Part shown: positions 3,388 through 7,766 of the stretch, piece by piece
How positions within the stretch are numbered: position 1 is the first letter of the stretch
How the letters are laid out: each line of letters opens with the position of its first letter
Assembly: GCA_964456505.1 (NCBI GenBank)
Contig: CAYWAH010000001.1
Coordinates: 37,464 to 101,463, forward strand
Direction of reading: 5' to 3'
Length of the DNA stretch: 64,000 bases
Source of the DNA: an uncultured Clostridium sp.
GTDB taxonomy: Bacteria; Bacillota; Clostridia; TANB77; CAG-508
Program-made: the position numbers and the translations under genes
Notes under the pieces: generated by a model
The model's database searches: none
Seen by the model: the letters and a program-made list of their open reading frames with translations, nothing else
Told to the model about the DNA's origin: nothing

Positions 3388-3416
3388 TTGAACTTAAATG
3401 TACTTTATGCTAGAAT
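3388..3416 (+). promoter_or_regulatory. Sigma-A-type promoter of the accessory operon: -35 TTGAAC (3388-3393), 17-nt spacer, -10 TAGAAT (3411-3416)
   Basis: Both hexamers are close to consensus and the spacing is optimal. The promoter lies about 90 nt upstream of the DUF488 start. A 3-codon uORF (ATG AAA CTA TAA, 3452-3463) with an upstream GGAGG sits in the leader. Confidence 0.5.
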
Positions 3417-3505
3417 AAATGCATGAAAAAAGGAGGAAGATTAAAAATTAAATGAAACTATAAATTAATATAACTAAAATCAATTATGCCAAATAGAAAA
3501 AAGAG

Positions 3506-3889
3506 GTGCATTTTATGATAGAAATTAAACGTATCTATGACTTCAATTCAGCAGAAAGAATGAAAAAAGATAATAGCCTTAAAATTCTGGTTGATAGATT
3601 ATGGCCTAGAGGAATTTCAAAAGAAAAAGCAAATATTAATTTATGGGCAAAAGATATTGCTCCATCAACAGAACTTAGAAAATGGTTCAATCACGATGAA
3701 AACAAATTTAATGAATTCAAAGAAAGGTATTTTGAAGAACTTAATTCAAATGATTATGCAATTAAATTTAAGCGAGAATATAAAAATAAAGATATAGTGT
3801 TGCTATACTCTGCAAAAGATAATATACACAACAATGCCGTTGTGTTAAAAGAATGGCTAGAAAAACAAAATGAAAATGAGGAAAATTAA
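3506..3889 (+). CDS. DUF488 (YeaO-like) family protein
   Basis: An AAGAGGTG RBS precedes the start. The hallmark motifs VDRLWPRG, APSTELRKWF, RYFEEL and LLYSAKD..HNNAVVL match the DUF488 signature. Confidence 0.7.
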   Translation: MHFMIEIKRIYDFNSAERMKKDNSLKILVDRLWPRGISKEKANINLWAKDIAPSTELRKWFNHDENKFNEFKERYFEELNSNDYAIKFKREYKNKDIVLLYSAKDNIHNNAVVLKEWLEKQNENEEN

Positions 3890-4290
3890 TGAAAGTTTTA
3901 ACAATAAAACAGCCATGGGCTAGTTTAATAATTTTAGGATATAAAAGATTTGAATTTAGAAGTTGGCAAACAAAATATAGAGGAGATCTATTGATACATG
4001 CTGGACTTGGAGTTGATAAAGAAGCAATGACAAGACTTGCAAAATATCTTCCTGAAGAACTTCCAAAAGGTGAAATAATTGGAAAAGTTAAATTAGTTGA
4101 TTGTATAAAAATGTCTCCAGAGTTTAAAGAATTATTATTAAATGAGAATAGCGAAATATATAAGAATAGTGTGTTTAAAGAAAACTATGGCTGGCAAATG
4201 ACTGACGTACAAAAATTTGATAAGCCTATAAAAGCTAAAGGACATCTAAGCTTATGGGAATATGATGAAAACATGGAGAAAAAATTATGA
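3889..4290 (+). CDS. ASCH-domain (PUA-like fold) protein
   Basis: The start overlaps the stop of the upstream gene (TAATGA), indicating translational coupling. The N-terminus LTIKQPWASLII..KRFEFR is a typical ASCH N-terminal strand and GxKxxExR motif. Confidence 0.6.
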   Translation: MKVLTIKQPWASLIILGYKRFEFRSWQTKYRGDLLIHAGLGVDKEAMTRLAKYLPEELPKGEIIGKVKLVDCIKMSPEFKELLLNENSEIYKNSVFKENYGWQMTDVQKFDKPIKAKGHLSLWEYDENMEKKL

Positions 4291-5088: not shown

Positions 5089-5430
5089 ATGGAACATATT
5101 TTAAAACTACAACCACAATTTTTTAACTATATAAAAGATGGAACAAAAAGAATAGAATTAAGATTATTTGATGAAAAAAGGCAAAAAATAAATATTGGTG
5201 ACACTATTATTTTTAAAAAAGAGCCAAATTTGGAAGAAATAATGAAAGTTAGAGTAAATGGTATTTTAAGATATAAATCCTTTGAAGAATTGTTTCAAGA
5301 TTTTTCTATAGATATCTTGGCAGATAAATCAATGTCAAAAAAAGAGCTCTTAAGTATATTAGAAGAATTTTATACTCCTGAAAAGCAAGAAAAATATGGT
5401 GTAATTGGTATAAGGATAGAAAAGATATGA
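5089..5430 (+). CDS. Second ASCH-domain protein
   Basis: A GGAG RBS lies 6 nt before the ATG at 5089. The sequence LKLQPQFFNYIKDGTKRIELRLFD plus the length of about 115 aa fit an ASCH/YqfB-like fold. Confidence 0.55.
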   Translation: MEHILKLQPQFFNYIKDGTKRIELRLFDEKRQKINIGDTIIFKKEPNLEEIMKVRVNGILRYKSFEELFQDFSIDILADKSMSKKELLSILEEFYTPEKQEKYGVIGIRIEKI

Positions 5431-6248
5431 ATTTTAGTAAAATAGAGAAAATAATAAAAGATGAGTATAATATTAAGAATATTATCAAAATTGAAAAAAA
5501 TGAAAATTCATCACAGGGAAATGTTTATATTATTTATACACCTACAAAAAATTACGTTGTGAAGAAATATAAAGAATTATCACATGCAAAATCAATGATT
5601 GAAATACATAATTTTCTTGAAGATAACGATTTTAATAGTCCAATAGTTTATAAAAATAACAATAAAATACAATACTCAAAACTAAATGATGATAGTTACA
5701 TTGTTCTATATTCTTTTATGATAGGAAAAGAGTTAGGATATGAAGATAATTCAAAAACACTGGACCTAAATATAGTAGAAAATATCGCAAAAGCTATTAA
5801 AAAATTTCACAATATTACTAGAGAATTTAATAATCAAAACATTGATAATATTCCATTTAAAATAGAAAAAGAAATCTCAAGAAAATCATTATTACATTTT
5901 GATTTAACAAGAAGTAATATATTTAATAATAATGGCAAAATTGGAATAATAGACTTTGACGATGTAAAATTTGGGGCATCAGTATGTGATGTAGCAATTG
6001 CTATTGCAAATTTGTTCTTTTCAAAAAGTAGAGGAATAGATGAAAAAGGTTATAAAAAATTTATTGAAGTTTATTATTCAGATGAAAAAGAAGAAATAAA
6101 AGATATTGAAATTCCTATGATAAAAGACATTGCAATTAAATGGATTAACTATGTGTTAAATACCAATAGCTTTGATGCATCAGACAAAGAAAGCTTTGAA
6201 GTAAGAAAAAAATTAATAGAAATGGAGAAAATAAAAAAGTGTCTTTAA
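5427..6248 (+). CDS. APH-family small-molecule kinase (aminoglycoside/macrolide phosphotransferase-like fold)
   Basis: The start overlaps the stop of the upstream ASCH gene (ATGA). It carries the catalytic loop HFDLTRSNIF (HxDxxxxN), the Mg-binding IIDFDD, and an N-terminal VVKKY lysine. At about 273 aa it is a compact member of the family. Confidence 0.65.
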   Translation: MNFSKIEKIIKDEYNIKNIIKIEKNENSSQGNVYIIYTPTKNYVVKKYKELSHAKSMIEIHNFLEDNDFNSPIVYKNNNKIQYSKLNDDSYIVLYSFMIGKELGYEDNSKTLDLNIVENIAKAIKKFHNITREFNNQNIDNIPFKIEKEISRKSLLHFDLTRSNIFNNNGKIGIIDFDDVKFGASVCDVAIAIANLFFSKSRGIDEKGYKKFIEVYYSDEKEEIKDIEIPMIKDIAIKWINYVLNTNSFDASDKESFEVRKKLIEMEKIKKCL

Positions 6249-7732
6249 TAAGTGTAAATCATTTAACATTTGGATATGATGGAAGCTACAACAATATATT
6301 TGATGATGTTTCTTTTAACATAGACACTGATTGGAAGCTAGGATTAATAGGTAGAAATGGCAAGGGAAAGACCACTCTTTTAAAACTATTACAAGGAAAA
6401 TATGAATACTCAGGAACAATAACAAAAAATGTTGATGTCGATTATTTTCCTTTTGAAGTTTCAAATAAAAATAGAATGGCAATCGAAATTGTAAATGAAA
6501 TTGCTACAAATGTAGAAGACTGGGAAATTATAAAGGAACTAAATTTACTTAATACAGATCCAGAAATTTTATATAGAAATTTCAATTTACTAAGTGGTGG
6601 TGAACAAGTAAAAATTTTCTTAATTAGCTTATTCTTAAAAGAAAATAATTTCTTACTTATTGATGAACCTACAAATCATTTAGACATTGAAACTAGAAAC
6701 AATCTTGCTAATTATTTGCAAAAGAAAAAGGGCTTTATTCTAGTTTCTCATGATAGAATTTTTTTAGATAAAGTTGTAGACCATATAATATCAATAAATA
6801 ATACAAATATAGAAATACAACAAGGTAACTTTTCATCATGGAAAGAAAATAAAGATAAACAAGATAACTTTGAGATGATGCAGAATGAAAAATTACAAAA
6901 AGATATAAATAGATTAGAAATAACATCAAAGAATAATGCAAAATGGTCATTTGAAGCCGAAAAAGCTAAAAGCAAAAAAAACAACCAAGAAACGAAAATA
7001 GATAAAGGTTATGTTGGACATAAAGCTGCAAAAATGATGAAAAGATCAAAAAATTTAGAGCAAAGAATTGATAAATCAATAAATGAGAAAAATACATTGC
7101 TAAAAAATGTAGATAAAAATGAGAAATTAAAAATTGTACCATTAATAAATTCTAGAAATCCTGTTATTCAATTAAATAATTTACAAATAAAATACAATAA
7201 TAATCCAATATTTATGCCAGTTTCATTTGAAGTAAATGATGGAGATCGAGTCGCAATTATTGGCAAAAATGGAGCAGGAAAATCAAGCATTCTGAAATTA
7301 ATACTTGGAGAAAATATAAAGTATAATGGCACATATAAAATTATTAATAATCTAAAAATATCTTATGTACCTCAAAATACTGATAATCTAAATGGAAACT
7401 TAAAAGAATTTGCACAAGAAAATAATGTCAATGAAAGCATTTTTAAAGCAATGCTAGTAAAGATGGGATTATCACAGACAGATTTCGATACTAATATTCA
7501 AAATATGAGCGAAGGGCAAAAGAAAAAAGTTTTGATTGCAAAAAGTATTTCAGAGCAAGCCAATATTTACATATGGGATGAGCCTTTAAATTATATTGAT
7601 ATATTAACAAGAGAACAAATTGAAGATGCAATTTTAATGTACAAACCAACAATCATTTTTGTAGAACACGATGAAAAATTTATTGAAAAAATAGCAACTA
7701 AAATAGTGCAAGTAAAAAATGTAAGACAATAA
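6239..7732 (+). CDS. ABC-F ATPase of the antibiotic-resistance (ARE) Lsa/CplR/Vga type (ribosome protection); GTG start
   Basis: It has two nucleotide-binding domains with Walker A motifs GRNGKGKTT and GKNGAGKSS and signatures LSGGEQ and SEGQKKK. A charged interdomain linker (KMMKRSKNLEQR) is present and there is no transmembrane domain. The 497 aa protein is collinear with Lsa(A), sharing the motifs TDWKLGLIGRNG, FILVSHDR and YIWDEPLNY. Confidence 0.8.
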   Translation: MSLISVNHLTFGYDGSYNNIFDDVSFNIDTDWKLGLIGRNGKGKTTLLKLLQGKYEYSGTITKNVDVDYFPFEVSNKNRMAIEIVNEIATNVEDWEIIKELNLLNTDPEILYRNFNLLSGGEQVKIFLISLFLKENNFLLIDEPTNHLDIETRNNLANYLQKKKGFILVSHDRIFLDKVVDHIISINNTNIEIQQGNFSSWKENKDKQDNFEMMQNEKLQKDINRLEITSKNNAKWSFEAEKAKSKKNNQETKIDKGYVGHKAAKMMKRSKNLEQRIDKSINEKNTLLKNVDKNEKLKIVPLINSRNPVIQLNNLQIKYNNNPIFMPVSFEVNDGDRVAIIGKNGAGKSSILKLILGENIKYNGTYKIINNLKISYVPQNTDNLNGNLKEFAQENNVNESIFKAMLVKMGLSQTDFDTNIQNMSEGQKKKVLIAKSISEQANIYIWDEPLNYIDILTREQIEDAILMYKPTIIFVEHDEKFIEKIATKIVQVKNVRQ

Positions 7733-7766
7733 AAGTAAAAAATCACATAGGAGAAAATAAAATTGG

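Follow-up and report, generated by a model that had tools for sequence, protein, structure and literature searches.

Six small genes lie in a row on the forward strand, from 3506 to 7732 and 3' of a tRNA-Leu(CAA) gene, in an uncultured human-gut 'Clostridium sp.' that is CAG:440-like. The stretch analysed here, referred to as the window, comprises 64,000 nucleotides of contig CAYWAH010000001.1 (assembly GCA_964456505.1) and has a GC content of ~28%. In order, the genes encode a DUF488/YeaO-family protein, an ASCH protein (ASCH1), a Nudix hydrolase fused to the remnant of a GT4 glycosyltransferase (GT::Nudix), a second ASCH protein (ASCH2), an APH-fold kinase and an Lsa-type ABC-F ribosomal protection protein. 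An earlier interpretation made from the letters alone, here called the sequence-only reading, had suggested that the six genes could be one functional module acquired horizontally at the tRNA gene. Its domain assignments (DUF488, ASCH twice, Nudix, APH and ABC-F) are all confirmed by Pfam searches with hidden Markov models. However, the block probably grew by accretion and was compacted by deletion into an array of small genes that have unrelated functions and are probably co-transcribed; the chromosomal spot in which it lies is hyper-variable. DUF488/YeaO and ASCH1 are resident genes of the species, and the stretch after nucleotide 4094 or 4290 is strain-specific.

Gene order and packing

The six same-strand open reading frames (ORFs) had been described as overlapping or nearly abutting, and both the ORF list and the junctions agree with this for all but one boundary. 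ASCH1 begins within the end of the DUF488 gene (TAATG, a 1-nucleotide (nt) overlap), ATGA joins ASCH1 to GT::Nudix and ASCH2 to the kinase gene, and the GTG start of the ABC-F gene lies 10 nt ahead of the kinase stop. Between the Nudix gene and ASCH2 there is a gap of 16 nt, using ATG 5089. Such tight packing is atypical of the window, because four of its six overlapping junctions fall within the block and only ~5 of 50 junctions outside it are of 4 nt or less. The GC content is 22-26% across ASCH2 to ABC-F versus 27-33% in the flanks, a mild dip.

Proteins encoded by the block

The DUF488/YeaO-family gene (3515-3889, + strand) encodes 124 amino acids (aa), in an ORF that opens with GTG at 3506. 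The best Pfam match of the protein, PF22752 (2.5e-34), represents the 'inactive' N3 subclade, and the protein is cysteine-less. Its relatives are numerous, with ~8,000 scored, and all 120 of the 120 examined among the matches listed are single-domain proteins. ATG 3515 for this gene and ATG 5089 for ASCH2 (113 aa) are the starts called on other contigs and are likely to be the real ones.

The two ASCH proteins belong to different types. ASCH1 (3889-4290, + strand, 133 aa) is of TRIP4 type (PF04266, 1e-10; TRIP4 ASCH structure in the PDB, 9.4e-11). ASCH2 (5089-5430, + strand, 113 aa, in an ORF that opens at 5077) is of PH0355/PF0455 type (PF04266, 2.6e-14; PDB 2Z0T, 5.1e-16) and is also 113 aa long as called on Logan contigs. 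ASCH proteins are reported to hydrolyse N4-acetylcytidine and to deacetylate tRNA (PMC6972931; 10.64898/2026.02.27.708502). The former reports the same N4-acetylcytidine activity for YqfB (PMC6972931), and the latter, a preprint, describes an octapeptide with Lys, Glu (or Thr) and Arg, from which our motif criterion was taken, and reports the Lys/Glu/Arg form as catalytic for N4-acetylcytidine removal (10.64898/2026.02.27.708502). Both copies keep the K-x-x-E-x-R octapeptide, as GYKRFEFR in ASCH1 and GTKRIELR in ASCH2.

The third ORF (4287-5072, + strand, 261 aa) is composite. Its first part (4287-4616, + strand), whose ATG overlaps the ASCH1 stop, holds ~80 N-terminal codons of a GT4 glycosyltransferase gene and ~30 unmatched codons, in frame with the Nudix part. 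In phmmer, residues 1-79 match residues 1-86 of a 377-aa protein (P0366) at 56% identity. The N-termini of other ~380-aa proteins match as well; such proteins carry Glyco_transf_4 and Glycos_transf_1, and the direct Pfam match of the remnant is sub-threshold (0.012). The second part (4617-5072, + strand) encodes a Nudix hydrolase of 151 aa from its own ATG (PF00293, 1.1e-13, residues 116-236 of the 261-aa ORF). Its Nudix box, GCEEYDLNRKETVKREIKEETGI, is of the right length and has the REIKEETGI core, with Leu in place of Glu at position 7, and was scored as a Nudix box against the consensus GX5EX7REUXEEXGU. More than 100 relatives (147-158 aa, 62-82% identity) are standalone Nudix proteins that cover only the C-terminal part, the 261-aa chimera is known from just 2 contigs, and the N-terminus is GT4-like; judged from these comparisons, the ORF is therefore a deletion-made, in-frame fusion of a dead GT4 gene and a Nudix gene.

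A gutted second copy of the Nudix gene (7756-7841, + strand) follows the ABC-F gene. It comprises a ribosome-binding site, a TTG start and ~9 codons joined to the last ~10 codons and the stop, ~378 bp of the body being gone. Two direct repeats relate it to the first copy: D3 (4616-4655 and 7756-7795, 90% identity) covers the first 40 nt of the Nudix gene and D1 (5022-5078 and 7785-7841, 86%) its last 57 nt. Nudix homology ends 6 nt past the Nudix stop and resumes at the start of the remnant, and it brackets ASCH2, the kinase gene and the ABC-F gene. The gutted remnant recurs in other samples. The recombination scars that the sequence-only reading had placed at the block are in this way confirmed. 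Two contigs of 2,792 bp that contain exactly ASCH2, kinase and ABC-F were considered as a circular element and rejected: their ends fall inside the repeated Nudix-tail stretch (window 5035-7826), where assembly breaks at the repeat.

The fifth gene (5427-6248, + strand; ATG overlapping the ASCH2 stop) encodes a 273-aa, eukaryotic-like small-molecule kinase of APH fold (PF01636, 1.1e-10). The motifs HFDLTRSN and IDFDD, with H157, D159, N164, D176 and D178, are invariant in 45 kinase homologues and provide the HxDxxxxN catalytic loop and the DxD/DFD metal-binding motif of the fold. There was no sequence match in the PDB. An AlphaFold2 (AF2) model of the protein (pLDDT 94) gives TM values of 0.75-0.76 to 2PPQ and 6SV5, and the best fold matches are homoserine kinase II (2PPQ), the amicoumacin kinase AmiN (6SV5), YtaA, the N-acetylhexosamine kinase NahK and APHs, at 11-18% identity. 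All 12 NCBIfam matches of the kinase (E up to 0.01) are far below their cut-offs and none is to an APH or Mph model; the best scores are 50.2 of 172.7 for CotS and 36.8 of 271 for homoserine kinase. The earlier proposal of a drug-inactivating kinase loses its footing here, since no curated resistance-kinase model is matched. Nine kinase homologues with 48-52% identity are longer, at 424-441 aa, and precomputed GNAT domains (PF13302, PF00583) are found in three of them. The fusion of kinase and GNAT domains hints at a common small-molecule substrate.

The last gene (6239-7732, + strand, GTG start) encodes an Lsa-type ARE ABC-F ribosomal protection protein of 497 aa with two ABC_tran domains (1.9e-41) in one soluble polypeptide and no transmembrane domain. 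Both Walker A motifs (GRNGKGKT and GKNGAGKS), both signatures (LSGGE and MSEGQ) and both Walker B motifs (LLIDEP and IWDEP) can be read. With 485.6 bits, it passes the cut-off of 380 of the ribosomal-protection ABC-F model NF000355, and the assignment of this gene to the ribosome-protecting ABC-F proteins is upheld. Against the Lsa model NF000167 (ABCF_Lsa_all) it scores 707.7 bits, below the cut-off of 750, matching positions 1-491 of 492, whereas the CplR model NF043038 is matched only partially (238.8 bits, cut-off 780); of the earlier label 'Lsa/CplR-like' the first half stands and the second does not. Residues 1-493 align to residues 1-497 of the Lsa(A) chain of 7NHK (E 1.6e-132), with linker gaps of only 1-4 residues, and a comparison with plasmid-borne Lsa(E) gives 56% identity across 98% of the protein. 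Proteins of the Lsa family bind the E site, and their interdomain linker reaches the peptidyl-transferase centre and displaces pleuromutilins, lincosamides and streptogramin A (PMC8196190). By its similarity to these proteins, the ABC-F should by itself give carrier strains resistance to lincosamides, streptogramin A and pleuromutilins. The gene has no upstream leader and its GTG start lies inside the kinase gene, so that drug-sensing attenuation appears unlikely; the absence of such a region points to constitutive expression, through coupling to the genes before it and read-through from them.

Three alleles among strains of one species

Contigs were taken as conspecific when they encode an identical DHFR protein, and by blastn they match the window with 99.8-99.9% identity over 1-4094. 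Three alleles are present among them, and what all three keep of the block is DUF488 and the 5' part of ASCH1. Allele A, the commonest assembled allele, was found on five contigs and in nine similar places and consists of window 1-4094, 99 bp of other sequence and window 9069 onward. Missing from it is segment 4095-9068, with the 3' end of ASCH1, GT::Nudix, ASCH2, the kinase gene, the ABC-F gene, the Nudix remnant and two small membrane-protein genes. The 99 bp in its place are the tail of a GNAT gene which is not present in the window; ASCH1 is cut after residue 64 (nt 4094) and fused in frame to this GNAT acetyltransferase tail, ending '...VYLWVYKDNFSAIKLY*' (around L086 11634-11747).

Allele B consists of window 1-4290, 170 bp and window 10138 onward. 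Two contigs (L090 and L095) contain both of its junctions, and a third (L091) has the same gene order but ends early. Segment 4291-10137 is missing, including most of the conserved M29 aminopeptidase gene, and the allele carries a 43-aa chimeric ORF that ends in the aminopeptidase C-terminus (L090 11842-12011). Allele C is that of the window, with ASCH1 and the aminopeptidase gene intact and the variable genes present. It was detected through its ABC-F in at least 15 sequencing runs. Its contigs end at the Nudix repeat, and the poor assembly of this long allele biases the allele frequencies.

Most of the block is accessory, as the sequence-only reading had proposed, some strains of the species having it and others not. 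The allele junctions cut into coding sequences. From the GNAT remnant in allele A and the aminopeptidase remnant in allele B it follows that the genes at this spot have differed between strain lineages. Three deletion scars are carried by the gene boundaries: the GT4 remnant, the gutted Nudix copy and the ASCH1-GNAT fusion of the short allele.

The variable part begins at least 840 bp downstream of the tRNA gene, inside or after ASCH1, with 1-4094 common to all alleles. No second copy of the 28-mer at the tRNA 3' end occurs in the window with up to 3 mismatches, and no integrase or recombinase domain was found in the scanned ORFs from 3506 to 11315, a scan that left out the aminopeptidase ORF at 9087-10214. 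A tRNA-targeted, horizontally acquired islet was rejected on these grounds: there is neither integrase nor tRNA 3'-end repeat, the genes next to the tRNA are constant, the polymorphism does not start at the tRNA and the alleles differ by deletions.

Other known kinds of variable locus were considered and set aside. An integron-like cassette array came into question because the genes are small, promoterless and strain-variable. It was rejected, although no dedicated attC search was made: attC sites could not fit into junctions that overlap, and an integrase is missing. Phage origin was rejected since ASCH2 has no viral relative in the viral scan and the Nudix relatives found there reach only 29-43%. 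Anti-phage defence was rejected as well, PADLOC giving domain-level matches only: ASCH to PDC-M11B (2-4e-4, partial lengths), Nudix to PDC-S07 (1e-6), and the ABC ATPase to mad3 and AriA.

Relatives of the genes in other organisms

Gene contexts were compared at the level of tblastn similarity, with flanks of 5-10 kb, in 201 loci from other organisms. These foreign loci hold 126 relatives of block members (8 of DUF488, 1 of ASCH1, 24 of Nudix, 12 of the kinase and 81 of the ABC-F), and not one of the loci holds two different members. In 80 metagenome loci with ABC-F relatives of 52-80% identity, no relative of any of the other five turns up within 7 kb of the ABC-F gene.

The closest ABC-F relatives found are ~79-80% identical over their full length and come from eleven human-gut metagenome loci. 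There the ABC-F gene forms a pair (e.g. L122 5943-8485) with a gene that ends 146 nt upstream of it and encodes a 303-aa Erm-family 23S rRNA methyltransferase, which is Erm(42)-like (2.3e-80) and scores 210.9 against the cut-off of 212 of a broad Erm model. At several of these loci the pair sits behind a ~1,900-aa protein of conjugative-element type, and the flanks are variable. The Erm-family and Lsa-like ABC-F pair looks like a mobile two-gene unit of MLS/PLSA resistance. Upstream of other ABC-F relatives are GNAT, YjbR, TfoX_N, HTH or TM1506 genes. In a related species, HGM13623 (L018 7983-9247), a frame-broken and 5'-truncated ABC-F gene with 71-72% identity lies upstream of the M29 aminopeptidase gene, and between them is a gene of the O6-methylguanine-DNA methyltransferase family (ogt; Pfam DNA_binding_1). 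An ABC-F gene may have occupied roughly this position before the species of the window arose, and have been lost repeatedly. Among 80 GTDB species representatives, gene order around the M29 aminopeptidase gene is poorly kept, and the comparison yielded no block relatives there beyond this ABC-F pseudogene, the solitary kinase gene at L023 and the solitary ASCH1 orthologue at L025.

The contexts of the kinase relatives are equally diverse. One with 73% identity stands behind a methyltransferase, a His_Phos, a second methyltransferase and a CYTH gene, with a resolvase and a relaxase adjoining, and another with 49% adjoins peptide deformylase. A third, with 74% (L201), is the last in a string of DHH, CYTH, dNK, BpsA_C, AdoMetDC, radical-SAM, HAD and deaminase genes. 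Compared with this locus (L201 1858-6831), a sister contig of this related lineage (L202 2148-3098) has a deletion of six genes, including BpsA_C, AdoMet decarboxylase, radical SAM, HAD and deaminase-like genes, and a dNK/thymidylate-kinase-like gene is fused there to the APH-fold kinase gene in one 316-aa ORF, a deletion chimera like GT::Nudix. At L023 the kinase gene is alone; the 212-aa gene that follows it has no Pfam match, and a reading of it as CYTH was withdrawn.

DUF488 relatives with 80%, 74% and 67% identity have no ASCH neighbour and occur with GNAT and DNA_alkylation genes, or alone. Nudix relatives with 82% and 79% identity lie beside Tex or upstream of ylxM-ffh-rpsP, and three related loci (L221, L222 and L224) carry two Nudix genes in tandem. 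ASCH1 has an orthologue in a related species (L025), where an ATGA overlap couples it to a PNP_UDP_1 phosphorylase gene; Nudix and GNAT genes lie close by.

Flanking features and transcription signals

The tRNA-Leu(CAA) gene (3167-3252, + strand; ARAGORN; Rfam tRNA model, 62.6 bits) is context only and lies outside the transcription unit. Directly 3' of it, a hairpin with a T-run (3255-3305, + strand; inverted repeat I8 with 18-nt arms, 94% complementary, and a 15-nt loop) is likely to terminate transcription of the tRNA gene. The candidate for the promoter of the array is a promoter-like site at 3388-3416 (+ strand, 9 of 12 matches), which reads TTGAAC-17-TAGAAT and has TG ahead of its -10. 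It can be called a candidate only, because in this AT-rich DNA promoter-like matches are not enriched over shuffles (51 in the window versus 43.7 +/- 6.8), and promoter prediction was dropped as uninformative evidence. Of the earlier claim that the six genes are under one promoter, the site can be pointed to, but the claim itself cannot be shown. No terminator-like site was found on the + strand from 3306 to 7958, and an Rfam scan for riboswitches and leaders finds the tRNA alone.

Downstream of the gutted Nudix copy are two genes for small proteins of 151 and 149 aa (7959-8414 and 8411-8860), tandem paralogues that are ATGA-coupled and have 5' regions 86% identical to each other. Their products have no Pfam matches and contain hydrophobic stretches near both ends. 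The two genes have a strong promoter-like site of their own, TTGACA-17-CATAAT (7858-7886); in one other sample a 20-bp deletion (L100 ~1050-1110) takes out its -35 box. The aminopeptidase gene (9087-10214) that follows is identified as Peptidase_M29 on conspecific contigs. Elsewhere on a conspecific contig (L089 14003-14215), ~200 extra bases between the endonuclease gene and clpC contain 3-4 copies of a 'AATTAAAATAGAAA'-like unit that is not in the window.

Origin of the block

The existence of three alleles, the scars and the lack of any conserved partnership in the foreign loci are the reasons for which we regard the block as an accreted array. It would have been built by gene gain and repeated deletion behind the resident DUF488 and ASCH1 genes. 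A strong local deletion bias would have removed spacers and neighbouring genes, so that genes without promoters of their own came to lie one after another downstream of a single promoter, with stops and starts that overlap. Each of the products would act by itself. ASCH1 and ASCH2 are predicted to be amidohydrolases of N4-acetylcytidine type, acting on the free nucleoside or on tRNA; the Nudix protein would be a nucleotide pyrophosphohydrolase, and the kinase would act on a small molecule. Resistance would be the work of the ABC-F alone: bound at the E site, it would reach with its linker into the peptidyl-transferase centre and drive out lincosamides, streptogramin A and pleuromutilins. Its expression would depend on read-through and coupling from the genes in front of it, and not on drug-sensing attenuation.

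Several points weigh against an array of this kind. The packing is extreme for the window, with four of the six overlaps, and a long-standing functional operon would look alike. The overlaps between ASCH2 and the kinase gene and between the kinase and ABC-F genes have no visible scar. The foreign loci were anchored on some of the block genes only, and ASCH2 is not among the effective anchors. Co-transcription, translational coupling and all the enzymatic activities are things that we infer. Finally, a loose functional guild retains a small probability, since ASCH, Nudix, the PNP/Udp-like phosphorylase, dNK and deaminase all touch on nucleoside or nucleotide chemistry.

An acquired cassette is an unlikely alternative for part of the block. 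ASCH2, kinase and ABC-F (5079-7755) would have entered together through a single, Campbell-type crossover between the resident Nudix gene and an incoming Nudix fragment, and kinase and ABC-F would cooperate. Capture of this kind would account for the exact bracketing by Nudix-derived direct repeats, which are only 86-90% identical, as for copies of different origin, and it is consistent with the GC content, lowest in this segment, with the mobile DNA that carries the closest ABC-F relatives, and with two internal junctions that overlap and bear no scars. The repeats would be explained equally well, however, if the Nudix gene was duplicated long ago and one copy then lost its interior, as tandem Nudix genes, which may be paralogues of each other, exist in three related loci. 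Furthermore, the Nudix gene was not seen in any allele without the ASCH2-kinase-ABC-F cassette. No kinase relative adjoins an ABC-F or ASCH gene, and the 80 ABC-F relatives likewise have neither a kinase nor an ASCH gene near them. A more ambitious version would make the scar-free trio of ASCH2, an AmiN/homoserine-kinase-like kinase and an Lsa-type ABC-F a lineage-specific resistance unit, captured between two Nudix copies by homologous recombination, in which the kinase inactivates a ribosome-targeting natural product and the ABC-F clears the ribosome. We hold this to be very unlikely.

It is also unlikely that the first five genes form a loose guild for nucleoside and nucleotide salvage and sanitation, dealing with N4-acetylcytidine and aberrant NTPs, to which the ABC-F is attached at the end as an unrelated passenger. 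The activity reported for ASCH proteins on N4-acetylcytidine and tRNA (PMC6972931; 10.64898/2026.02.27.708502) and the K-x-x-E-x-R motif kept in both copies speak for such a guild, together with the coupling of the ASCH1 orthologue to a nucleoside phosphorylase gene near Nudix and GNAT genes (L025) and the occurrence of kinase relatives near dNK/thymidylate-kinase-like, deaminase-like, DHH and CYTH genes. Yet no pair among the first five genes is conserved, the relatives also have polyamine, methyltransferase, DNA-repair and ribosomal genes as neighbours, and DUF488 is without known activity, in a subclade that Pfam calls inactive.

The composite module of the sequence-only reading would combine ribosome protection by the ABC-F with drug inactivation by the kinase and the processing of a nucleoside-type antibiotic, or of its breakdown product, by the ASCH, Nudix and DUF488 proteins. 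It is highly improbable. The outlying tightness of the junctions, the lack of a + strand terminator-like site within the block, the place of AmiN, which inactivates a ribosome-targeting drug, among the best structural matches of the kinase, and the protection against nucleoside antibiotics by other ARE ABC-F proteins such as Ard1 (10.1101/2022.12.05.519065) speak for it. Against it, no two members co-occur outside this species in the loci compared, and four of the six genes are missing from most assembled conspecific contigs while DUF488 and ASCH1 persist without them. The Nudix gene is fused to what is left of a dead GT gene, none of the curated models for resistance kinases recognises the kinase, and the Lsa-family spectrum is one of lincosamides, streptogramin A and pleuromutilins (PMC8196190). 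Relatives of DUF488, ASCH1, Nudix, kinase and ABC-F lie in unrelated contexts and none of the 201 foreign loci holds two members; independent, unrelated contexts without co-occurrence are what the sequence-only reading had itself named as refuting a single module. Its functional interpretation is largely refuted. Its statement that no described locus has this architecture is true, but only as a one-lineage accident of gene order.

Significance

What is new here is a member of the Lsa family in a strain-variable patchwork operon; no new resistance or nucleotide-sensing system is revealed. The presence of an Lsa-family gene in some strains only of a prevalent, uncultured human-gut Clostridium is relevant to surveys of the gut resistome. 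Nature also offers here a clean case of unrelated genes being piled into an operon-like array by deletion bias, in which remnants and co-existing alleles document the steps. It carries a caution that function should not be inferred from tight packing in small, AT-rich genomes.

Comparison with known systems

In its two ABC domains, the lack of a membrane domain and an end-to-end alignment that includes the linker, the ABC-F resembles Lsa(A) of Enterococcus faecalis (PDB 7NHK) and Lsa(E), and its mechanism and spectrum are expected to be those described for them (PMC8196190). It differs from curated Lsa proteins in scoring 707.7 against the cut-off of 750, in having no leader and in its host, an uncultured gut Clostridium. 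The putatively mobile Erm and Lsa-like ABC-F pair shares with the window its closest ABC-F relative, but the partner there is an Erm methyltransferase and none of the five other genes of the window.

The two ASCH ORFs can be compared with the ASCH N4-acetylcytidine (ac4C) amidohydrolases and tRNA ac4C deacetylases, namely Escherichia coli YqfB, Thermus thermophilus TTHA0113, the TRIP4 ASCH domain and the archaeal PH0355-type proteins. Like them, both ORFs pass the Pfam ASCH model and keep the octapeptide; ASCH1 resembles the TRIP4 structure and ASCH2 the PH0355 structure. The block differs in containing two copies from different ASCH subgroups, with an activity predicted from sequence, and one of the copies, ASCH1, is truncated in most assembled strains.

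As a whole, the block is most readily compared with the new operons that arise by deletion and the appending of genes (Price, Arkin and Alm 2006, PMC1480536). In both, unrelated genes come to form a tight same-strand unit whose spacing is set by deletion bias, several genes are added quickly and the arrangement is not kept in relatives. The present case differs from those operons in that transcription as a unit is something we infer, whereas the deletions themselves can still be seen, as remnants and as co-existing alleles.

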